In this document: in pieces, positions 9,362 to 30,867 of the stretch
Layout: the number at the start of each line of letters is the position of its first letter
Numbering within the stretch: position 1 is the stretch's first letter
The notes under the pieces: model-generated
Told to the model about the DNA's origin: nothing
Databases searched by the model: none
Seen by the model: the letters and a program-made list of their open reading frames with translations, nothing else
Position numbers and translations under genes: made by a program
NCBI GenBank assembly: GCA_026996935.1
Contig: JALWJW010000446.1
Span: forward strand, 1 to 31,186
Source: Hyphomicrobiales bacterium
GTDB taxonomy: Bacteria > Pseudomonadota > Alphaproteobacteria > Rhizobiales > Aestuariivirgaceae
Length of the DNA: 31,186 nucleotides
Direction: 5' to 3'

Positions 9362-10582
9362 ATGGCTAATGAAATTCGCGTACCGACCCTTGGCGAGAGT
9401 GTTACCGAGGCTACGATAGCGACATGGTTTAAAAAACAAGGTGAGGTAATTGTTGCTGATGAGCCTTTGGTTGAACTTGAAACCGATAAAGTAACTCTTG
9501 AAGTGCCGGCACCTGCAAGTGGTGTGTTGTCTGAGATTGTTGCTAATGAAGGCGATACTGTTGATGTGGGCGCGCTGCTTGGTGTGATCTCTGAAGGCAA
9601 GGGCGCGCCAGCGGCGGCTCCTGCCGCTGCAGCTTCAGCTCCTGTTGCAACCGCATCTGAGGCATCTGCACAAAAAGCATCGGGCGGTGATGAATTGTCA
9701 CCAGCAGTTCGCAAGCTTGTTGCTGAAAACAATCTTAACCCCGCTGATATTAAAGGCACGGGTAAAGATGGCCGATTGGTTAAAGGCGATGTGCTTGCCT
9801 ATCTTGAAAACAAATCCTCAGCGCCTGCTGCTGTTCTGACTCCAGCTCCAGAGCCTCGCGCATCTGTCAGCGAAGCTGATGCCCCGCGTGAAGAACGCGT
9901 GCGGATGACACGGTTGCGTAAAACAATCGCCAAGAGGTTAAAAGATGCGCAAAATACAGCGGCCATGCTGACCACTTTCAATGAGGTTGATATGTCAGCT
10001 ATCATGTCTTTGCGGTCTGAATATAAAGATATGTTCTTAAAAAAACATGGTGTTAAGCTTGGCTTTATGAGCTTTTTCACCAAAGCTGTTTGTGTGGCCT
10101 TAAAAGATGTGCCTGCTGTTAATGCTGAAATTGATGGTGATGATCTGGTTTATAAAAATTTCTGCCATATTGGCGTTGCTGTTGGGACCGATAAAGGTTT
10201 GGTTGTGCCAGTGCTTCGTGATGCAGATCAAATGTCTTTGGCTGAAATTGAAAAAGGCATTAATGAGTTGGGCGCAAAAGCGCGTGAGGGTAAATTGTCT
10301 ATGGCCGATATGACGGGTGGTACATTTACTATTTCAAATGGTGGTATTTATGGTTCTCTGATGTCGACGCCTATCTTAAACGCCCCACAATCTGGTATTT
10401 TGGGCATGCATAATATTGTTCAGCGCCCTGTTGTGGTAAATGGTGAAATTGTGGCCCGGCCAATGATGTATTTAGCCGTTTCTTATGATCACCGTGTTGT
10501 TGATGGCAAAGAGGCGGTAACATTCCTGGTGCGTATTAAAGAGTGCCTTGAAGACCCTAAACGTTTTATTTTAGACCTATAG
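9362..10582 (+). CDS. sucB: Dihydrolipoamide succinyltransferase E2
   Basis: Lipoyl motif ETDKVT, Ala/Pro linker, E3-binding GTGKDGR, catalytic SYDHRVVDG. Confidence 0.98.
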
Positions 10583-19911: not shown

Positions 19912-20564
19912 TGGGGAAAGCGAATTTGAAAACAATTGATTTAACCACCTGGTCGCGGCGTTCGCATTATGAGCATTTCCGAAAAGTGGCCAGCCCACAT
20001 TTTAGCCTGTGTGCGCAGGTGAATGTAACCCCGTTAATGAGCGTGTTAAAGCCGGCTGGCTTGTCGGTTTACAATGGCGCGCTTTATGCGATTATGCGTG
20101 CGGCCAATGACGTGCCTGAATTTCGAACGCGCTTTGTTGGCGATGGCGTTGTGGAACATGACATTGTGCATGCCTCAACAACAGTGCCTATTGATGATGA
20201 TCGGTTTGGGTTTTGTGATATTCGTTACACGGGTAATTTTGCAGCGTTTAATGGGCGCTGTGAGCAAGAGATTTTAAAAGTCAAAGCAAGTGATGGTTTG
20301 GTTGATGAGGTTGCCCATGAGAGCAATTGGATTTATTTATCCTGCCTGCCCTGGCTCAATTTCACCCAAATGACCAATGCGCTTGATGGGCCAGATGATT
20401 GTATTCCGCGTATTGTCTGGGGCAAAATTACCAAAACTCATGGTTCCTGGTTTATGCCGGTGAGCGTTGAAGTTCATCACGCTTTAATTGATGGGGTGCA
20501 TGTGGCGCGGTTTTATCAAAATATTGAAAAAGTGCTTGGTGATGTGAAAGCTTTTTTGAGTTAG
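19911..20564 (+). CDS. Type A chloramphenicol acetyltransferase-like (CatA family) O-acetyltransferase
   Basis: WSRRSHYEHF, YLSCLPWLNFT, PRIVWGK and catalytic VHHALIDGVH. 217 aa, typical CAT length. Confidence 0.88.
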   Translation: MGKANLKTIDLTTWSRRSHYEHFRKVASPHFSLCAQVNVTPLMSVLKPAGLSVYNGALYAIMRAANDVPEFRTRFVGDGVVEHDIVHASTTVPIDDDRFGFCDIRYTGNFAAFNGRCEQEILKVKASDGLVDEVAHESNWIYLSCLPWLNFTQMTNALDGPDDCIPRIVWGKITKTHGSWFMPVSVEVHHALIDGVHVARFYQNIEKVLGDVKAFLS

Positions 20565-20565
20565 T

Positions 20566-20608
20566 CGTTGCGCCCTGAATGTGGCAAAGCATAGAGCAAG
20601 GCGCAACG
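20566..20608. terminator. Hairpin between convergent genes, probable terminator
   Basis: CGTTGCGCC (20566-20574) and GGCGCAACG (20600-20608) form a perfect 9-bp inverted repeat. U-tails are weak. Confidence 0.5.
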
Positions 20609-20614
20609 GGTTGT

Positions 20615-21751
20615 TTATCGGCTTAAGATCGAACGAATCTCAACGAGATTTGAGCGTACACGCAGGACATAAAACCCCATGGTGGTAACATGGGTAGGCA
20701 TAAGCCAGCCGTCTTCTTTACCGTTAGAAATAATCATCGGGTTAAGTTCCAAGGCCGATTTTATCTGACTTTCCATATTGTTCCAGACATCGGTAAGGTT
20801 ACGTTTTTCGATGATTTCGTGGAAGTCGGCACGTGCTGCACGCAAAATGCCGTAATAACCATAAAGCTGGCCTTTTGCAAACATGAATTGATTGTCGGCA
20901 TAAAAGTCAAACCAGCCCGCATTTGAGGCTTCGGAACGGCGTTTAATGGCGGCAGATGTTGAGCCGATATCTTTAGCAATACGATCAACAAATGTGCGTA
21001 AATTATCGGCGCGGGCATCAAAAGTTGCCTGGCATTTTACCAGACTGTTATTAAAGCCTTTGAGTTGTTTAATGGCGCTGCGGTAATATGTTGGGGTTTT
21101 TGTGGTCGGGCCGAAGGGGCGTTTACTGTCAAAGGGGTTGAAGTACCAGGTGAATTCATCAAACTGTAGGGCGCTGCGGGCGCTTTGTAAGTCTTTATTA
21201 ACTTCTGAGGTGCCGCGAATACGACCCAAAGTATCGGTCAGTTCAACGGCGGTGCGTTGCACAGCCTGATGAACACCACGCTGGAATGAGGCGGTGTTGT
21301 CAAACCATGGGGTGCCATCCCAGCTAAAGCCAAAAAATCCGGCTTTGTAGGTGGGCATGGAAGAAATCCATGAGTTTTGATTTACTGAAAAGTCAACAAG
21401 CTCTGCGGTGACATCAACAATGGCGGAACGGCCACAGGTTTTGGTGGTTTGTGAACCACCTTCGATCGAAACCTGCTCACCTGCGGTGTAATTCAAACCA
21501 GAGTATTTGTACTTATTGATGTAGGCAATGTCGTAGCCGCGAATCCATAAAGCGTGCCAAAAGAACCAGCCATAAACAAAAACTATGGGGATAAAGATCA
21601 GCAATAAAAGCCCTTTGATAATCCAACCAGAGGTTTTGTAGGTGGTGTAAAGCCATACAAATGGCGCGCCAAGCCAGCGCAATGCGCCTTTGATGGTTGC
21701 CATGAAAAGGGCGAAAATTTTATTGATCCACTCAAAAATAGGGTCGAGCAA
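20615..21751 (-). CDS. DUF2333-like membrane-anchored protein
   Basis: TTG start with GGAGGA 7 nt upstream. Amphipathic N-terminus, one TM (about residues 44-65), then a soluble domain with WFDNTASFQRG and ADNQF motifs that I associate with DUF2333 from memory. Confidence 0.75.
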   Translation of the reverse strand: MLDPIFEWINKIFALFMATIKGALRWLGAPFVWLYTTYKTSGWIIKGLLLLIFIPIVFVYGWFFWHALWIRGYDIAYINKYKYSGLNYTAGEQVSIEGGSQTTKTCGRSAIVDVTAELVDFSVNQNSWISSMPTYKAGFFGFSWDGTPWFDNTASFQRGVHQAVQRTAVELTDTLGRIRGTSEVNKDLQSARSALQFDEFTWYFNPFDSKRPFGPTTKTPTYYRSAIKQLKGFNNSLVKCQATFDARADNLRTFVDRIAKDIGSTSAAIKRRSEASNAGWFDFYADNQFMFAKGQLYGYYGILRAARADFHEIIEKRNLTDVWNNMESQIKSALELNPMIISNGKEDGWLMPTHVTTMGFYVLRVRSNLVEIRSILSR

Positions 21752-21754
21752 TGA

Positions 21755-23059
21755 TTAGTCCTCCGGTCGTGAAAATAAAGTTTCCCAATATTGTTTTCGG
21801 TAAGGGAAATATTGGTCGGTTATTTTATGTACGACATAATTGCGCAAATTGTTATTATAATGGTTGTAGTCATTGTAAAAGCGTTGCTTATTTACTGCAA
21901 ACTTTGTGAAAAAATCAAAATCAGCAAATTGCGATAATAACCGTGCCACCAAAACGCGGTCCTGATGATCGGGATTGGCCCGTACTATCATTAACTTAAG
22001 TGCTGCAGTGACGTTTTTCAAGTTTGGTACAACATCATTGAGCAAGCTCTTTTGTATTCGGGTGAGGAATGAGAATACACCGCTTTTGGATAATTCATCA
22101 ATATTGTTGTGAATCCAATTGGTGACCTGATTATCGCTGAGGCTTTGCAAGTCGGTTGTTTCGTCTAATTTGTTCATCGTAGAGCGGACATAGATTTCCT
22201 GGCGCAGATCAATAAGGCCTGAAGATTTAAGCCAGTCAGGTTCAAAGCCAGAGATACGGCCTGTATCAATGAGAAACTGATAAACCCCTTTTGTGTCCTG
22301 GCGATGGATATAAGTGAAATCGAACATGGCATTTTGTAAAAATGACGGGTTGGGCTCATCTCCAATAACAGTGATTTGCCCACCATTTGACCCGTCATTG
22401 TCGCGGAAAACATAAAGACCGTCAAAGTGGCTGGTCCAAAATGATGGTAGTTCAAATTTGGTATTGCGCGGGATGATGTTGTTATATCGAATGTCGCCGA
22501 CAAGCTTTCCATATTCAAGAATTTTGTTCATCAAAAACCGGTCTTGCCATGAATCTTTTTCGGTAAAAAAGCGATTGAGTAAGGTTTTTAATTTGCGTGC
22601 TTTAGTAAATAAATCGCCGCCTGTGCGGAATTTAAATTCCACTTCTTTGATAGATAAAATATCATCGATGGAGCCGATGTGAAAAGTCGAATTTTCAATC
22701 TCGCCAAACACCACATCTTTCAAGGTGAGGATGCGCAGGCTTTCGGCATTTTTTTGGTACATGGCCATCATCAAGTCATAGGTTGATGAAAATTTGGCGT
22801 AAACGCTGGGTAGGGATTCTTGCTCAGGTGTCAAAATGATAAAGCGTCGGTTAATGCCTTGAGGGTTCAGATAGTCCTCATTTTCAAGCTCTTTTGCTAT
22901 TTCAGGTGAATAGCCTGTTGCATCGATGGTGAAGGTGTCTAATTTGGTTGGCGGCAGGCCAAAACCTTTCAGCGCTGTATTATAGCGTGCGATCATGTGA
23001 GATTCATTAACCTCGTGCATGGCGCCATAAATCAGATCATTGTCAATTAACAGGTCCAT
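21755..23059 (-). CDS. Uncharacterised soluble protein (DUF6638-like, from memory)
   Basis: 434-aa ORF with no TM. Its ATG overlaps the upstream stop (TAATG at 23057-23061). Confidence 0.8.
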   Translation of the reverse strand: MDLLIDNDLIYGAMHEVNESHMIARYNTALKGFGLPPTKLDTFTIDATGYSPEIAKELENEDYLNPQGINRRFIILTPEQESLPSVYAKFSSTYDLMMAMYQKNAESLRILTLKDVVFGEIENSTFHIGSIDDILSIKEVEFKFRTGGDLFTKARKLKTLLNRFFTEKDSWQDRFLMNKILEYGKLVGDIRYNNIIPRNTKFELPSFWTSHFDGLYVFRDNDGSNGGQITVIGDEPNPSFLQNAMFDFTYIHRQDTKGVYQFLIDTGRISGFEPDWLKSSGLIDLRQEIYVRSTMNKLDETTDLQSLSDNQVTNWIHNNIDELSKSGVFSFLTRIQKSLLNDVVPNLKNVTAALKLMIVRANPDHQDRVLVARLLSQFADFDFFTKFAVNKQRFYNDYNHYNNNLRNYVVHKITDQYFPYRKQYWETLFSRPED

Positions 23060-24972
23060 TAGTCGTTCCAGTGCCCACTTTGTTTAAGTTCGGCAATTTC
23101 TGCGGCGGCGCGTTCTCTCACGCGTTGGTCGCGGATATAGTTTTCAACCGCTGCCGCATCAGATTTATCAGTGTAACGGAATTCTGAATCTGCATAACGG
23201 TTGACTTCTTGTTGAATGGTTTCAAGGGTGATTGGCTTGCGCAAAGAGGCGATCATATCGCGTTTTTCATCATAAGATTTATGCATAAACGGTTCGGGTG
23301 TTTCAAACCATTCATCTGGTAGCTCAATATCCATGGCGCGCATTTTAACCGCATCGGTGATGTTTTTAATGGCCCGCCCGGTAAAGCGTGGTTCGGCTTG
23401 TTTAATGTCGTAAAGATAAAGGCCAATGTCTTTTAATGTTTTTAGTTCGCCATGGGCCTGTCCAAATCTTTCAAACACTCTCAACAAGGCTTCTTCTTGC
23501 GGTTTGGAATGTTTTTCATAGGCTGTGGCAACGGCTTTTTTGATTTCTTGAGCGGCAAACATATCGTGATCGCCAAGAGGGATTGAATGATTTTTACCCA
23601 GTAACAGGGCAAAAATATCGATGTAGTCATCTTGGGTTTGCGGGCCATCGACCAACCAGCGGGCGCTGGCGCGCTGGCGTAGGGCATCGTCAACATTTTC
23701 AGGATAGTTTGAGAACATACCAAATGAACAATTGCCACGAATAACAGTGTTGGCGCCAGAAAACCCTTCCATTAAAACTGCAGTGATTTCTTGTTGACCA
23801 GCCGAAGCACGATCATCTGAACGCTTGGCGGCAATCTGGTCAATATCATCAACCGTGCCAAAGCCAATAACCTTTGGGTCAAGCACATTGGTGATGAATT
23901 GCTTACAGTTTTGACCAGATTTGCCTTGATAGGAACTAATTTGATCGACACCAAAGTTTTCATAATGAAATGGATAATTGGCGACATCGCAATAATCTTT
24001 AATCAGGCCGGCGATCATTTGAATAAGGGTGGTTTTACCAGTGCCGGGAAAGCCGTCACCAATGAAGGTAAACAGGAAGCCGCCAAGATCAACAAACGGG
24101 TTGAGTTGTTTGTCAAAATCATAGGCCATGAGCATTTTAGCTAATTTTGTTGCCTGATATTTGGCAATGTGGTTGCCGACAACTTCATTGGGTTTTTTGA
24201 AATTCATTACCAATTTTTTGCGCTTACCACGGTCGCGAATGTCAAATCCGTTGAGTTCAAAATCATCGGCATCAAGACGGATGTGGTTTTGCTCAAAGCT
24301 GTCAAGCACATTAAAGCGGGCGCGGCGTTGGGCCAACCCTTCCAGCATGGCGCGGGCAAAACCTTTGGCGCGGGCCATCATCTGGGCATCATCGGGTGCA
24401 TCGGAAATGGCCTGATCTATGCCATATAAAAAGTGCTTTAAGGCCTCATGTGGGGTTTCAAATGAGAAGACAGGTTCTGGCAAGTCACTTGTCGGGTCAT
24501 CGCTTGTGTCGATCGTTTGGACAATGAATGATGCTGCGGTAAAGGCGGTGACGAAACTGGCTGCTGCCAACAAGTTATGAAATTGTCTGGCATTTTCACC
24601 ACTTAATGGCGTGCTTTTATTTTCAACACTCAGGCTTTCCAGATTGGTTTGGCGGGCAAAAACATCTTTTACTGCAAGGGCAACAGCAAGGCCGCGTCGC
24701 AGGCGGAATAATAAAGTGTGTTGGGCAATGGATAACATGCCATCGGTTGGGGCAATGTTTTGAATTGTTTCAGCTATTTTGACATTTAAACTTGACTGGG
24801 AAGGCTTTGCTGCAATGGTTGAAACAAACCGGCGGTGGGTACCAGCCAGTTCCGTCTTTGATTTTGAACTATCAGATTTAATAACAACAGTTGCCCGTTC
24901 GACCAAAGACTGGGCCGTGGTCAGGTGTTTAAGAATATCTTTTTCTGCCAGTGTTGTTAGTCCGGTGTCCAT
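23059..24972 (-). CDS. Classical-clade AAA ATPase with a long N-terminal domain
   Basis: Walker A GFPGTGKT (24031-24054), pore loop SSYQGKS, Walker B GFGTVDDID, and sensor-1/SRH FSNYPENVDDALRQR. Confidence 0.9.
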   Translation of the reverse strand: MDTGLTTLAEKDILKHLTTAQSLVERATVVIKSDSSKSKTELAGTHRRFVSTIAAKPSQSSLNVKIAETIQNIAPTDGMLSIAQHTLLFRLRRGLAVALAVKDVFARQTNLESLSVENKSTPLSGENARQFHNLLAAASFVTAFTAASFIVQTIDTSDDPTSDLPEPVFSFETPHEALKHFLYGIDQAISDAPDDAQMMARAKGFARAMLEGLAQRRARFNVLDSFEQNHIRLDADDFELNGFDIRDRGKRKKLVMNFKKPNEVVGNHIAKYQATKLAKMLMAYDFDKQLNPFVDLGGFLFTFIGDGFPGTGKTTLIQMIAGLIKDYCDVANYPFHYENFGVDQISSYQGKSGQNCKQFITNVLDPKVIGFGTVDDIDQIAAKRSDDRASAGQQEITAVLMEGFSGANTVIRGNCSFGMFSNYPENVDDALRQRASARWLVDGPQTQDDYIDIFALLLGKNHSIPLGDHDMFAAQEIKKAVATAYEKHSKPQEEALLRVFERFGQAHGELKTLKDIGLYLYDIKQAEPRFTGRAIKNITDAVKMRAMDIELPDEWFETPEPFMHKSYDEKRDMIASLRKPITLETIQQEVNRYADSEFRYTDKSDAAAVENYIRDQRVRERAAAEIAELKQSGHWND

Positions 24973-25007
24973 CGTAAAACCTTTTGTTTTATTGCTTTAA
25001 CAGGGTG

Positions 25008-26165
25008 CTAAACGTGTCTGATGATGTGATCGTCTGAAGCGACGTAAATCTGGTAGCCATCAAAAATTTCATCTGCTTTGCCGCTGGCGTAGGTTTTCTG
25101 ATAGGCTTCGTGGGGTAACAGGGCGTGCTTTTCCTGAGAACTCACGCCATTTTTTGCACACTCAATATCATCGGTATTGATGTGGTAAATCTCTTTTGGG
25201 ACGGCACGGCCCCAAAGGCCGTGTTTGGTTGAAATTTCGTCTTTTGAAAACAGCTCTTGCAGGGTCCAATTTAACAACCAACTGTCATCAGGGTCTTTGA
25301 CGCGATCAAGAATGGTTTGAACATGCTGATTTTGCCGGGTGATGCCGCCCAAGTAAAGTGGCCCTAAAACAAAGCGCCTTAGCTGTTTGGGATGTAGTGT
25401 TTCAAAATCTTTGTCCATTGCGGTGGCGATGGATGTTAAAGTGAGGCTGTATAGGGAATTGGCTTTGGTAAAGGCTCTGAACTGTCCAGATAACTCAGTG
25501 TTTGGCAAGCCTACTCCCAGCATTGTATCGCCGCCAACATCACCCCAAGGGCCTGATTTCTTTGGCACAGGTTTAGGGGCGTTTTTTGATGAATCCTCAA
25601 TGACGGCCATATAAACGATAGGTAAGTTTTGTGTGCCGTCATATGTTGCCCAATGGACCACATAATAAGGTCTTTTTGAGCGTGGATTATAAGAGTGCTT
25701 TACCGTTTCAGGTTGCGTGAAAGGTTTGAAGGTCGGGCCCTTTTCAAGGGCATTGTAATAGAGACGCTCGCCCATGGTTTTTTGTAGGGTATCGGGGAAC
25801 TGACGGTATTTTAACATCAGTTCGGCCATTTCGTTTTTTATCTGGGTTGGGTCCGGCAGGTTTTCCAGCATGTCAGCAATCTGTCGGCGGTCATTTTCCA
25901 ACTGCAAGACATTCTGGAAGGTGGGCATGCCGGAATCTTCCAGATCAATTTTGAATTTATCAAGAAACCAGATGCTTTTTTTCCAGCACTCAAAAGACCA
26001 ACGCAATTTGCCCAGATGCAAATTGACCACATCATAGATCAGGTTGTGATTTTTGACCCAGATGCCTTCGGTTTCAAAAATACGATCAAGGGAATCAAAA
26101 GCTGAATCCACTGCCTGAAAGTATTTTCGGGTTGCGCTAAGCTGGCCAGAATTTGAGGTTGTCAT
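25008..26165 (-). CDS. Uncharacterised soluble protein
   Basis: 385-aa ORF flanked by 15- and 35-nt gaps inside the operon. No TM and no motif I recognise. Confidence 0.8.
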   Translation of the reverse strand: MTTSNSGQLSATRKYFQAVDSAFDSLDRIFETEGIWVKNHNLIYDVVNLHLGKLRWSFECWKKSIWFLDKFKIDLEDSGMPTFQNVLQLENDRRQIADMLENLPDPTQIKNEMAELMLKYRQFPDTLQKTMGERLYYNALEKGPTFKPFTQPETVKHSYNPRSKRPYYVVHWATYDGTQNLPIVYMAVIEDSSKNAPKPVPKKSGPWGDVGGDTMLGVGLPNTELSGQFRAFTKANSLYSLTLTSIATAMDKDFETLHPKQLRRFVLGPLYLGGITRQNQHVQTILDRVKDPDDSWLLNWTLQELFSKDEISTKHGLWGRAVPKEIYHINTDDIECAKNGVSSQEKHALLPHEAYQKTYASGKADEIFDGYQIYVASDDHIIRHV

Positions 26166-26180
26166 GGATGAAAACCCAAA

Positions 26181-27266
26181 TTAGTTTGCGGTGTAATTTG
26201 ATGATTCGTGTTTTTCCAATACCTCAGAGAAACGGCGGGCAAAGGCATCATCGGCTAATTGTTTGCGGCGTTGAATTTCGGCTGAATTGACCATATTTGA
26301 TTCATGCAATTCAAGCAGATCTGCAATATGACGCTGGGCTGCTGCCCCAATGCCGGCCATGGTTTCTTCAGCCGCGGTGTCAACCTTTGTTCCCAATGTG
26401 TTGATTTGGTGGGCAACATCTTGTTGAGCAGCCGTTTTAAGCGAATCTTCAAGAGATTTATAAAGAATAATCCGCTGTTCTGTATCAATAGACAGTTTGT
26501 TAATTAAGGTGTTTTGAGCTGCAATCTGATTGTTTAAGCTATCGACAAAGGTCTGGAACATTGAGGTGTAGCGCTCCAGAGTTTGTGAGCCTGCAAGCAG
26601 TTCTTGTTCTTTGGCCTGGGCCTGGTTGTATTCGGTCGCCAGTTCTGAGCGTTCAGATTCCAGTTTAGTGCGGTCTGCCTGATTGGTGGTTGCTGCCATT
26701 TTGTTTTCAATATCAAGCAACATCGGGTTGAGTTCTTCGATGCGTGCTTGTGTGGCTTTAAGCTGTTCGGTCACATCTTCGCGTTGACCAATAACAGACC
26801 TTAAGCTGTCTTCAGAATTTTTATAACGCTCGGTCAGGACATCTTTTTGTTCTTTTAAAATACCGACAATGGTATCTGACTTGGCTAGCAGGTCTTGTAA
26901 GTTTCCGGCCAATGATGTGGTGCGAACGCGATCATTGCGCATGGAGTTGGCTTTTTTCTTTGAAAACAGGCCAATGAGTTTTTCAGACAAAGAAAAAGTC
27001 TGCATGTTCTTAAATTCTGCTCCGAAACCTTCAGTGACATCTTCAAGGCCGATGATAAGATCAGCGATGTTTGATTCCATGACCTTTTGTTGGGCCAGAA
27101 CATCCTGGATGCGGGCATTTTCGATATCAAAATTGACATCTCCAAAACTGTCTGATTTGGCAACCTTTTCTAAAACTTCGCTGCTTTTATGAATCTTATC
27201 GCGCATTTCAACGACAAGGTTGCGGGTTTTCTCGATTTCCAAATCAAGTTGTTTTGTCTGTACCAT
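26181..27266 (-). CDS. Long coiled-coil protein (TelA/PspA-like architecture)
   Basis: 361 aa, heptad-rich E/Q/K/L/A composition, almost no Pro, no Cys or Trp, one amphipathic segment EKLIGLFSKKK. GGGAG upstream. Confidence 0.8.
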   Translation of the reverse strand: MVQTKQLDLEIEKTRNLVVEMRDKIHKSSEVLEKVAKSDSFGDVNFDIENARIQDVLAQQKVMESNIADLIIGLEDVTEGFGAEFKNMQTFSLSEKLIGLFSKKKANSMRNDRVRTTSLAGNLQDLLAKSDTIVGILKEQKDVLTERYKNSEDSLRSVIGQREDVTEQLKATQARIEELNPMLLDIENKMAATTNQADRTKLESERSELATEYNQAQAKEQELLAGSQTLERYTSMFQTFVDSLNNQIAAQNTLINKLSIDTEQRIILYKSLEDSLKTAAQQDVAHQINTLGTKVDTAAEETMAGIGAAAQRHIADLLELHESNMVNSAEIQRRKQLADDAFARRFSEVLEKHESSNYTAN

Positions 27267-27417
27267 ATGCTCGCATCTCCCGAATCTATTTGTAATTTAC
27301 TTTACGTTATATAGTAAATTTAGCTAGAACTTAAATAGGGAGTTTAAACAAGCGATGAATTTCTTGCAATAAATGCTGTCAAATTGCTGTTTTAGAGCGT
27401 GCAGGCATCATTTGAGC

Positions 27418-28338
27418 TTATTCGGCTGGCTCATTATAGTAATAATTAGCCTTCTTGCCATAAATCAAGCCGCGCAAAATTGAGCGAATCTTTTCTGATT
27501 TGCGTAAAGGATCAAGAACTATGCGTATGGCATCATGGGCAAAGACTTTTACCTGGTCAAAAACAGGTGAAGCACCTGGGGCTTTTTGGGGCCAACCGAA
27601 ATGGCGCATGGTGCCGTTCATCAAACGAATTTTGTTGAGGCGTTCCACTTTTGGGGTTTTCCATGTCATGGCCATAGAGACAGAGTACTCTCCGTTTACC
27701 TTAACCCAATGAGGATCAAGATAGGGGATATGAACGCCGTCACCCGGGTTTAATTCAAACACAGTGGCGCGTTGTTCAAAAGCTGTATCATAGGTTTGAT
27801 TGCGAAACTGCGAGGGGGAAATCTCCATACGTTGTTCGCTGACCAATGCGCGGTCTTCATTATCAAAAATATGAACTTCCTTGGATCCGCGAATTTGGAT
27901 CAGGATGTTTTCTTCTGCATCCACATGAAAGGGCGTGGTGGCATTGGCTGATGAAATGAAAATAAAACCTTCAAGGTCACGATATTTTTGTCCCTTTAAA
28001 CCGGCATTTTCAAAAAGACCGTCAACAAATTGTGTTAAAAGGACTTTGTATTCTTCAACTTCTTCAACTCGTTTTATAACCATCCAGGCATTGTGGTTCT
28101 CAATGCTGTTAATCACCTCTTGCGGTTTCATATTGAGCTTTGGAGTGGTTTCTGCGGTTTGACCAATTTCAAGGTCGCCTGAATTATATTCGATTTTATC
28201 ACGGGGCATTTTTGCCGCAAGTTCAACCAGCTTGGGCAGAGTAAAAAGAGGATTGTCGCTGAGACCATGTTTAATCTGGAAGGGTTTTTTGTGCAGGTTT
28301 TTTGATACTGTACTTTGATCCAGTTCGATAATATTCAT
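27418..28338 (-). CDS. JmjC/cupin-like Fe(II)/2-oxoglutarate oxygenase
   Basis: TPFHVDAEEN (HxD), QIRGSKEV, and GDGVHIPYLDPHWV (distal His). Start overlaps the upstream stop (ATGA). Confidence 0.85.
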   Translation of the reverse strand: MNIIELDQSTVSKNLHKKPFQIKHGLSDNPLFTLPKLVELAAKMPRDKIEYNSGDLEIGQTAETTPKLNMKPQEVINSIENHNAWMVIKRVEEVEEYKVLLTQFVDGLFENAGLKGQKYRDLEGFIFISSANATTPFHVDAEENILIQIRGSKEVHIFDNEDRALVSEQRMEISPSQFRNQTYDTAFEQRATVFELNPGDGVHIPYLDPHWVKVNGEYSVSMAMTWKTPKVERLNKIRLMNGTMRHFGWPQKAPGASPVFDQVKVFAHDAIRIVLDPLRKSEKIRSILRGLIYGKKANYYYNEPAE

Positions 28339-29489
28339 TTGACTAGTTTCCTGTTTTTAAAGCTGTGGTAAAGGCGCTTGATATGATCGCGAGCTGACAG
28401 GTGGAATGATTTAAGTGTAACAATAACTTTAAAGAGCAATTCGCTTGTGTTTGGTGTGGCAATTAGAACGTCGGCAATCTGGATACGATCACGCCAAATG
28501 TTATTAATCATCGGGTGGTCTGCATCGGCGCTTGAATCAACCAGTTCAATTGGACGGTTGTTAAGAAAATCCTTTGTTGCATCCAGAATGACAAGCACAC
28601 CGGGTGAGAATTGTGATTTTGTTTCATCAAAGGCCATTTTGCCGAGCCAAGCCTGATTGTTCTCCATAAATCCAAACAGTGAAGCGATTACTTTTCCGTT
28701 AAGTGTTATCTTCCAGAACAGTAACGATCCATTTTGAGCCATTTGCTCCACAGCCTGGCGCAATTGACCCTCTTGGGCTTTGTTACAAGCAATTGCTGTG
28801 CCGTTTTTGCCTTTCCAGCCGGATTTTTCTAAAACCAAGAACTCATCAAGCCATGGTGTGACAGGCATGGAGCTGTCCCATGTGGTTGAAACGAGCTGGC
28901 CCAAATCTGATAAACGGTTGCGAATGCGGCGATATTCTTTTTTGCGTTTGCGAGAGAAGTTTTTGTTGAACCAGGTATTATAGTCTGTTGTGCACTTTAG
29001 CGCGGCGCGTTCATGGATATGATATCGGGCAAAACGCATGGTTGAGGAGGGTGAAAGCTTTTCTATGACTTGATCCAGGTCGGGGCTTTGTTGGACTTTT
29101 TTTAAAAAAACAGCTTTGGTATTGTGCTTTTCTTCACACTTGGACAAGAGGGCTTTAAGAGCTTTTTCCGGTTGGTTTTTGTCTAACAGGGGAGTGCCAG
29201 AAAACAGGAAGCCAGTGTCCCATGTTGTTGATAGTTTGAGTGGAAATAATGGCACTATTGCTTGGGGTGCAAGGCCAGCTATTGCAATGGGTTGTTTTCG
29301 ATCAGCAATGATGATTTCGCGATTATTGGCCGTGCTCAAATGGTTTGACTGGGCCGTAAGCCAGATGCGGTTGTGCGCAAATGCGGGGATAAGACAGTTT
29401 TGCGACAAGTGATCCCACTGGTCTTCAAATGGCGTGTTTTCAGGAAAGCCTGTTCCTGTTCGTTTGTTTTGATTAGGCTGGGTTAGCAT
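28335..29489 (-). CDS. CelD/BcsL-like GNAT acyltransferase
   Basis: SRKRKKEYRRIRNRLSDLG, FLVLEKSGWKG, KMAFDETKSQFSPGVLV and DSSADADHPMI are typical of this double-GNAT family. Confidence 0.85.
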   Translation of the reverse strand: MLTQPNQNKRTGTGFPENTPFEDQWDHLSQNCLIPAFAHNRIWLTAQSNHLSTANNREIIIADRKQPIAIAGLAPQAIVPLFPLKLSTTWDTGFLFSGTPLLDKNQPEKALKALLSKCEEKHNTKAVFLKKVQQSPDLDQVIEKLSPSSTMRFARYHIHERAALKCTTDYNTWFNKNFSRKRKKEYRRIRNRLSDLGQLVSTTWDSSMPVTPWLDEFLVLEKSGWKGKNGTAIACNKAQEGQLRQAVEQMAQNGSLLFWKITLNGKVIASLFGFMENNQAWLGKMAFDETKSQFSPGVLVILDATKDFLNNRPIELVDSSADADHPMINNIWRDRIQIADVLIATPNTSELLFKVIVTLKSFHLSARDHIKRLYHSFKNRKLVK

Positions 29490-30867
29490 CTTCTTTTTCC
29501 CTAATCATTTTATCATTCTGAATTTTGACGTTGTCATTGAGAACGCGATGGGCGGTGACAGTAAGCAAAACAGCTTCAACAATAAATGAGAGTGCGGTAG
29601 AAGCTGCTGCACCTAACAGGCCGTATCTTGGGATAAGCAGAAGATTAAAGGCGATGTTAATTGCAACGGCCGCGCCCATGGTGATTGCGGCTATGTTTTG
29701 TTGACCTGTTGCAATCATTAAACCTTGCAGGGGGCCGGCAAGTGAACGGGCCAGCAAGCCGATGACCAGAATAAACATTGTCGAGTAACCGGCCGTAAAT
29801 TCCGGGCCAAACAGCCATAAAATGGGTTTGCCTAAAAGCAGCAGGCCAAAGCCTCCAATTAGCGAGGGGATAAAGGTCCACATCCGGGTTTGTTTGAAAA
29901 ACCGCTTTAATTCAATATTGTCACCAGAAGAGTAAAGGGTTGAAAATTTTTGTGTTACAGCAGCAGTGACTGAAAAATGAACAAATGCAATGAGCGCGAT
30001 TGTGCGTGCGGCGGCAAAATAAATGGCGATCTGATCTGGTGTTACATATAGATCAAGCAAGATGATATCCATATTGGTCATCATTAAAGCAAAGCTTTCA
30101 ACTGCGATGACAGGCAATGATACTTTAAGCCAAAACATGGTTTTATATTCGCGTGGGCCTTTGTGAATTTCGGCCCGCATGCGTTTTTTCTGTAAAATAT
30201 ATTGAATGACAGCGGTTATCCAGGTTGCTGCAATGGCCGAATAAACCGCAGTTTCAGCGCTTTTACTCCAGCCAATGGCTACAGAAAGGCCAATGAAGGC
30301 AAAAAGTAATATTGGGCGCAAAACATAAGGGGGGATTAGGGCCAGATCAATCCAGCCTTGTGAGCGGCCAAGGCCGTCTTGGAAATCGGTTAAGGCAAAG
30401 GCGGGTACGCAAACCAGAGCCAGTGCGGCAGGTATACGATAATAATCTGCAATTGAACCGTCTAAAAAATGCAACAGGATCAGACCGGATATGGTTGCGA
30501 TAAGCCCCATACCAAATGAGAAAACCCGGCCTGTGCGAATAAAGCCCCGTACGAGATTGGGCTGTTTCTTTTCTTGATATTCAGGCACAAAACGCACAAC
30601 ACTGGTGGCAAAGCCTGCTGCGCATAGGGTGCCTGTGATGATAATCCAAACCCAAATATAGGTAAAAACGCCGTATTCGTGGGCACCGATCCAGCGGGCG
30701 AGAAGGACTTGAGAAAGAAAAGCGATGGCAGCAGAGGCAATACGGATGGCAAATGCGGTTATGGCACCGCGCTGTGAACGTTGTGTGTCGCCATCGCCTT
30801 TTAGAACGATCTCAACCTTGCGTTGAACATTTTCCGGCAAATATTGCAATAGTTTATTAACGACCAT
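29473..30867 (-). CDS. Wzx/MOP-family polysaccharide flippase
   Basis: Many TM helices with QVLLARWIGAHEYGVF, DIILLDLYVTPDQIAIYFAAAR and NLLLIPRYGLLGAAAST. Exact start uncertain. Confidence 0.88.
   Translation of the reverse strand: MVVNKLLQYLPENVQRKVEIVLKGDGDTQRSQRGAITAFAIRIASAAIAFLSQVLLARWIGAHEYGVFTYIWVWIIITGTLCAAGFATSVVRFVPEYQEKKQPNLVRGFIRTGRVFSFGMGLIATISGLILLHFLDGSIADYYRIPAALALVCVPAFALTDFQDGLGRSQGWIDLALIPPYVLRPILLFAFIGLSVAIGWSKSAETAVYSAIAATWITAVIQYILQKKRMRAEIHKGPREYKTMFWLKVSLPVIAVESFALMMTNMDIILLDLYVTPDQIAIYFAAARTIALIAFVHFSVTAAVTQKFSTLYSSGDNIELKRFFKQTRMWTFIPSLIGGFGLLLLGKPILWLFGPEFTAGYSTMFILVIGLLARSLAGPLQGLMIATGQQNIAAITMGAAVAINIAFNLLLIPRYGLLGAAASTALSFIVEAVLLTVTAHRVLNDNVKIQNDKMIREKEDANPA

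Follow-up and report, generated by a model that had tools for sequence, protein, structure and literature searches.

In a 31,186-nucleotide contig (JALWJW010000446.1, assembly GCA_026996935.1; hereafter the window) of a Hyphomicrobiales bacterium, a five-gene operon on the minus strand (positions 20615-27266) encodes an all-helical protein (gene 1), an orphan protein (gene 2), a classical AAA ATPase (gene 3), a DUF6638 protein (gene 4) and a DUF2333 protein with a predicted membrane anchor (gene 5). Judged by gene order and conservation, the window carries one copy of a module that is widespread but has not been described. The unit that recurs is a core of four genes joined by an exchangeable fifth, rather than a fixed set of five. 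We tentatively favour the reading that the module is a membrane-linked remodelling machine, in which the AAA ATPase would remodel a scaffold of gene 1 protein at the membrane. The literature mentions DUF6638 nowhere and DUF2333 and DUF1523 (a membrane partner in other lineages) only in passing. No characterised pathway covering these genes was found there or among the PADLOC defence models, as an initial annotation made from the sequence alone (the first-pass annotation) had supposed.

The five open reading frames are real genes and not chance frames, since about 70 other species conserve all five, at 38-85% identity and in unchanged order. The first-pass annotation had described five minus-strand frames, their gaps, a 151-bp upstream region and a hairpin behind the last gene. 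All of these were recovered at the same coordinates, the frames in a six-frame list with spacings of 15, 35, -1 and 3 nt; the -1 nt junction is an overlap of the gene 4 start with the AAA stop (TAATG). That annotation had also staked its reading on the genes occurring together in other genomes. Gene order was surveyed by tblastn in the best 80 loci, all from Hyphomicrobiales, and wherever the contig reaches far enough the five genes stand in the same order, in about 70 species. The sole exception is an Ahrensia metagenome-assembled genome (MAG; locus L065) with genes 4 and 5 only, whose AAA gene lies on another contig (L129; G191:C35:34309-36213) and, as a side observation, has one in-frame TGA. 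Identity to the window proteins across these loci is 68-85% for gene 1, 60-84% for the AAA ATPase, 40-80% for DUF2333, 41-73% for gene 2 and 38-70% for DUF6638. In about 45 loci from Rhizobiaceae and Phyllobacteriaceae, the operon occupies a fixed slot (choX-tdk-operon-fhs-extensin-like), and the sharing of the tdk-fhs slot by two families argues for long vertical inheritance. The rhizobial relatives that had been mentioned at first pass thus exist, Sinorhizobium meliloti among them. The distribution is nevertheless patchy, with the locus in 11 of 41 relatives.

The module reaches well beyond this order. The DUF6638 family comprises 435 clusters at 50% identity in a whole-library HMMER search, and a scan of one genome per species found relatives in at least 558 species. 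By blastp homology, a core of genes 1-4 is also found in Rhodospirillales, Gammaproteobacteria and Bacteroidota, and on one 359-kb IMG/VR contig classed as viral (L128:4892-11278; 33-46% identity to the window proteins). What accompanies the core differs between lineages. In Aestuariispira (L096) it is followed by DUF1523, and in locus L113 by an 89-aa peptide with two transmembrane (TM) helices and then DUF1523. On three Bacteroidota contigs the additional genes encode a 3-TM protein (182-203 aa) and a protein of 530-580 aa with N-terminal TM helices, while Vibrio owensii and Psychromonas have the core alone, beside mfd. In Thalassospira (L095:6124-8966) and in locus L092 (1596-3754), three inserted genes separate the AAA gene from that of DUF6638; they encode a 2-TM peptide (71-95 aa), DUF1523 and a Dynamin_N GTPase (436-482 aa) that has a hydrophobic paddle. 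The self-contained five-gene operon of the first-pass annotation therefore holds as a co-inherited module with a constant gene order, but its invariant part is a core of four, and the fifth gene is swapped between lineages.

A hydropathy scan identifies the gene or genes after DUF6638 as membrane proteins in Hyphomicrobiales, Rhodospirillales-type and Bacteroidota loci, although they belong to different families. This pattern supports a division in which the invariant part of the machine is probably cytoplasmic and the variable part lies in the membrane, and it strengthens the membrane link that had been proposed at the outset. The strongest pointer to membrane remodelling is the optional GTPase. 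Like the bacterial dynamin-like proteins DynA, LeoA and IniA, it combines a Dynamin_N domain with a hydrophobic paddle, here inside the Thalassospira-type operon. Unlike them, it is an optional add-on of one clade, and the window has no dynamin gene.

The junction between the AAA and DUF6638 genes, where stop and start overlap or abut in many lineages, shows further variation. In some Rhizobiaceae and Phyllobacteriaceae (L056, L072 and L082, near 9450-9910) a small gene with an endonuclease domain sits there, and S. meliloti Ak57 (L127:6060-7805) has such a gene together with an ISRm16 transposase. The operon thus tolerates insertions at this point.

The putative motor of the module is the product of gene 3 (23059-24972, minus strand; 637 aa from an ATG start), in which a helical N-domain (about 290 aa) precedes a single AAA module and a C-terminal extension that is conserved. 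The Pfam AAA model (PF00004) matches residues 307-438 with 42.4 bits against a cut-off of 21.2, and NCBIfam gives weak CDC48 and PAN matches to the AAA core only. The best solved relatives are the ATPase domain of the i-AAA protein YME1 and fidgetin-like 1. Motifs were compared in 26 orthologs from three classes (Alphaproteobacteria, Gammaproteobacteria and Bacteroidota). In the Walker A motif GFPGTGKT (residues 307-314; 24031-24054), G307, G310, T311, G312 and K313 are invariant. The pore-loop aromatic Y348 (SSYQGKSG; 23929-23931) is nearly so, with Phe in its place in Bacteroidota. In the second region of homology, R434 (DDALRQR; 23671-23673), which lies within SNYPENVDDALRQR and is the candidate arginine finger, is invariant, as are many C-terminal positions. 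These features place the protein in the classical clade, as first proposed, where it is a divergent member by its motifs and profile matches. By the same motifs, the motor would have everything needed for substrate threading. The Walker B motif departs from the canonical hhhhDE. It reads GTVDD, both aspartates (D375-D376; 23845-23850) are invariant, and the catalytic glutamate is found in none of the 26 orthologs. Since every ortholog has DD, this is a family trait rather than a local mutation. The N-domain also contains a moderately hydrophobic, Ala/Ser/Thr/Phe-rich helix (residues 133-152, at about 24517-24576; Kyte-Doolittle 1.75), whose hydrophobic character persists in every ortholog; F144 does not vary among 13 of them. 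The helix may lie buried in the core or dip into the membrane. A general Pfam scan, which was not a search aimed at MIT, revealed no MIT domain in the N-domain.

Gene 1 (26181-27266, minus strand; 361 aa, ATG start) encodes an acidic, all-helical protein with a net charge of -15, no cysteine, no tryptophan and a single proline. It is the best-conserved product of the operon (68-85% identity across Hyphomicrobiales, as against 38-70% for DUF6638), which fits a protein constrained over its whole surface. The first-pass annotation had described it as a coiled-coil protein and had pointed to TelA-type and PspA/ESCRT-III coiled coils; membership in either group is not supported at the sequence level. 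Gene 1 and 20 orthologs (21 sequences) match no Pfam family, and at E <= 1 the TelA model (PF05816) is silent on all of them; the same model likewise has no match in the genome. For profile-profile comparison with hhalign, TelA and PspA alignments were built from genome hits, with TelA against PspA as a control (probability 1.9%). Gene 1 scored 1.7% against TelA, no better than this control, and 8.6% locally and 0.1% globally against PspA/IM30/ESCRT-III (PF04012), again at control level. A profile search of the PDB returned only coiled-coil noise (best E = 0.039). Language-model features alone lean towards TelA, with 75 and 77 of the 100 nearest clusters in a group labelled TelA, in an example cluster of which 10% of the members carry PF05816. 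The likeness to TelA/KlaA/YaaN proteins is one of size, all-helical build and a G-x-F-S-K-type motif about 100 residues into gene 1, whereas the silence of the TelA model on every ortholog sets the two apart. TelA proteins are not known to travel with an AAA ATPase.

The architecture also invites comparison with Vps4 and ESCRT-III, including archaeal CdvC/CdvB and, as bacterial ESCRT-III relatives, PspA/Vipp1. Here, as there, a single-module classical AAA ATPase with a helical N-domain is encoded beside an all-helical protein, and fidgetin-like 1 belongs to the same meiotic clade as Vps4. Membrane action would be a further likeness, at the level of our model. In contrast to these systems, gene 1 has no Snf7 or PspA homology, the Walker B motif is DD, and the module has two additional obligatory proteins that lack known folds. 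The PspA gene of this genome, moreover, lies elsewhere. An ordinary PspA/IM30 gene on contig C309 (5916-6590; L118) is the sole match to the PspA Pfam model, and the operon is therefore not the PspA system of its genome. A complex prediction of the full-length AAA ATPase with gene 1 gave no answer (ipSAE 0.00) and counts neither way.

The two remaining core proteins had been described as unknown, and a fold search with their predicted structures is in line with this. Gene 2 (25008-26165, minus strand; 385 aa, ATG start) matches no Pfam family and is predicted to form an N-terminal helical bundle followed by a beta-rich domain (AlphaFold2 pLDDT 87.7). Gene 4 (21755-23059, minus strand; 434 aa, ATG start) matches DUF6638 (PF20343) over residues 11-429 of 434 with 194 bits against a cut-off of 27, and its predicted fold is alpha/beta (pLDDT 94). 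Both models were built from family alignments. Foldseek searches of the PDB found no solved relative, the best matches being at E = 8e-3 (TM score 0.10) for gene 2 and at E = 3 for DUF6638. Among AlphaFold Database (AFDB) clusters both retrieved only their own families, searches of the ESM Atlas by shape stayed at TM scores of 0.26 or below, and PDB profile searches were empty. Both proteins possibly adopt new folds, a weak or missing match being no proof of novelty. As no structural match was found, no function can be transferred to either.

In the window, the variable position is taken by gene 5 (20615-21751, minus strand; 378 aa), which matches DUF2333 (PF10095) in two stretches with 74.6 bits against a cut-off of 22. 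Its TTG start is supported by an invariant MLDP N-terminus shared by 16 orthologs. A conserved N-terminal peptide (MLDP...PF) precedes one predicted TM helix at about residues 43-66 (21554-21625; Kyte-Doolittle peak 2.3 over residues 39-70) and a large C-terminal domain. M1, D3, P4, P30 and F31 before the helix and C106 and C240 in the large domain after it are invariant. We infer from this pattern a topology with a cytoplasmic N-terminal handle and a periplasmic, disulfide-bearing domain. The one passing mention of DUF2333 that we found in the literature is in a type VI secretion system (T6SS) hcp3 locus. In locus L113 the core is immediately preceded, on the opposite strand, by type VI secretion genes (TssF, gp25-like, VipB and VipA; L113:1-4128), and the two observations may be a coincidence.

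Taken together, we propose that the four cytoplasmic proteins work with a lineage-specific inner-membrane partner, which in this genome would be the single-TM DUF2333 protein. The AAA ATPase would form a ring and, working on the cytoplasmic side of the membrane, pull on a substrate protein with its pore-loop tyrosine. The helical protein of gene 1 would be the scaffold or the substrate, assembled (possibly by polymerisation) and then taken apart, with gene 2 and DUF6638 as adaptors or regulators. The membrane partner may anchor the machine or couple it to the envelope. In DUF2333, the handle would be the invariant N-terminal peptide on the cytoplasmic side, and the invariant cysteine pair suggests that the large domain is periplasmic. 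Gene content and order, conservation, the sequence motifs and the membrane nature of the partners are observed, whereas we infer that the ATPase forms rings, what it acts on, that gene 1 polymerises, the topology and the role in the cell. A bolder version holds that the core is a multi-phylum membrane-remodelling or repair machine, a functional analogue of ESCRT-III/Vps4 with a new helical scaffold and two new folds, plugged into DUF2333, DUF1523 or dynamin-like partners. We regard this version as possible but doubtful.

Candidate stress promoters were sought in 79 leaders upstream of gene 1, namely that of the window, which contains neither an RpoH nor an EcfG consensus, and 78 orthologous leaders. 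The strict RpoH consensus of heat-shock promoters was found in none of them. The strict EcfG consensus of general-stress promoters was found in two (L009 and L023), no more often than in shuffled sequence, and these two leaders are identical and probably come from one genome. In S. meliloti Ak57 the operon lies between tdk and fhs. Published papers assign trpE to SMc02725 and shmR to SMc02726, and in a microarray supplement SMc02729 is annotated as a transmembrane protein, with SMc02730 and SMc02735 entered as hypothetical proteins. By locus-tag order, the S. meliloti operon presumably corresponds to SMc02729 to SMc02735, with SMc02733 as the AAA ATPase. A ChvI DNA-binding screen recovered an intragenic fragment, F9, of SMc02733 (PMC3687685). 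In phospholipid mutants, the presumed orthologs shift by only -0.1 to +0.3 log2 (microarray supplements), and with changes this small the link to ExoS/ChvI is weak.

Several of these observations weigh against a membrane-remodelling machine. Neither HMM nor profile-profile searches detect TelA, PspA or ESCRT-III homology in gene 1. A membrane-binding amphipathic helix was considered at SEKLIGLFSKKK, but the hydrophobic moment of this segment does not rank with the top six of the protein, and it was therefore dropped as evidence; the FSKKK motif of gene 1 does not stand out as an amphipathic segment. The DD Walker B motif may mean that hydrolysis is slow, or that the protein acts as a switch. 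Gene 2 and DUF6638 have no recognisable fold, which leaves room for an enzymatic role. That no stress-type promoter was found and that the presumed S. meliloti orthologs hardly respond in phospholipid mutants add to this, and no membrane gene adjoins the core in the two gammaproteobacterial loci examined (Vibrio and Psychromonas).

Other explanations draw on the same evidence. The module could serve membrane-protein extraction, insertion or quality control in the manner of Msp1, FtsH or Cdc48, with an AAA ring that dislocates or regulates the membrane partner via its N-terminal peptide and with genes 1, 2 and 4 as adaptors. As in Msp1/ATAD1, FtsH and Cdc48, a classical AAA ATPase with a pore-loop threading motif would act on or beside membrane proteins, and its nearest solved relatives include the ATPase domain of an i-AAA protease. 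The invariant residues ahead of the TM helix of DUF2333 (M1, D3, P4 ... P30, F31), the presence of a membrane partner in most clades and the conserved, moderately hydrophobic N-domain helix 133-152 would all suit this arrangement. Yet no N-terminal motif is common to the membrane partners, which come from unrelated families; none adjoins the core in the two gammaproteobacterial loci, and conservation is far higher in the four soluble proteins than in the supposed substrate. The operon encodes no protease domain detectable by Pfam, the AAA ATPase has no clear TM anchor, and, in a further difference from Msp1/ATAD1, FtsH and Cdc48, three conserved soluble partners stand beside a variable membrane partner. 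We consider this explanation unlikely. An assembly or activation chaperone of the MoxR, CbbQ or Rubisco-activase type, or an enzymatic pathway, would have the AAA ATPase remodel gene 2 or DUF6638, one of them an enzyme, with the helical protein as a scaffold. Invariant polar residues are indeed clustered in the N-terminal halves of DUF6638 (Y26, D46, Y63 and Q80) and gene 2 (D176, D251, K260 and R264), both are compact globular proteins in high-confidence predictions, and the DD Walker B motif suggests a slow, switch-like ATPase. As no resemblance in fold or sequence to any enzyme family was found for either protein, and as the constant company of membrane proteins and a dynamin-like GTPase would be left unexplained, we judge this very unlikely.

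Anti-phage or abortive-infection defence, in which the ATPase core would sense infection and trigger a swappable membrane-disrupting effector, had been offered as an alternative at first pass. The clade-to-clade exchange of membrane genes does resemble modular effectors, the distribution is patchy, and some copies of the core reside on Vibrio replicons of roughly 0.9 Mb, besides the one on the 359-kb IMG/VR contig. Some loci have Mrr-like nuclease and methylase genes in their vicinity, and gene 5 has a weak match to a PADLOC 2TM-effector model (E = 0.012). However, no PADLOC-DB 2.0 model is significant for any of the five proteins, the best being TRIP13 (E = 3.7e-4, AAA core only), and no nuclease, NADase or other known effector domain is present. 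The core has no match in 50,697 phage records and none on mobilisable plasmids; records labelled as plasmids contain it only on non-mobilisable megareplicons or on mislabelled chromosomes. The constancy of the tdk-fhs slot across two families and the unusually high conservation, with gene 1 about 70% identical across the order, weaken the idea further, and here too the two gammaproteobacterial copies have no adjoining membrane gene. A defence role is decidedly unlikely on this evidence, and AAA-driven membrane remodelling is the reading that we tentatively retain.

The operon has its own boundaries. A leader of 151 bp (27267-27417, minus strand) carries a GGGAGA ribosome-binding site 9 nt 5' of the gene 1 ATG and a CTATAT sequence resembling a -10 box, which the nearest relatives retain in part. 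Upstream, a cupin-like gene that closes a polysaccharide cluster ends at 27418. The genes at 27418-30867, on the same strand, encode a Polysacc_synt/MurJ-like flippase, a GNAT protein (Acetyltransf_6) and Cupin_8, a neighbourhood that is not kept in other species. At the other end, a hairpin (20566-20608, minus strand; 12-bp stem, -21.7 kcal/mol, z = -3.3 against shuffles) lies 10 nt past the gene 5 stop, between convergent genes, the opposing one being CAT-like, and has no U-tract on the minus strand. Rfam matched no family in 20300-27600. The window is one contig of a 2.7-Mb genome in 470 contigs, with a G+C content of about 45% throughout, and the nearest named relative is an Anderseniella MAG.

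The module spans Alpha- and Gammaproteobacteria and Bacteroidota and, in rhizobia, occupies a stable chromosomal slot. For two of its four core proteins, the fold is predicted with confidence but has no counterpart among solved structures. If the proposed role is true, a system powered by an AAA ATPase, with a dynamin as optional partner, would provide a new entry point to inner-membrane remodelling and repair beyond PspA.

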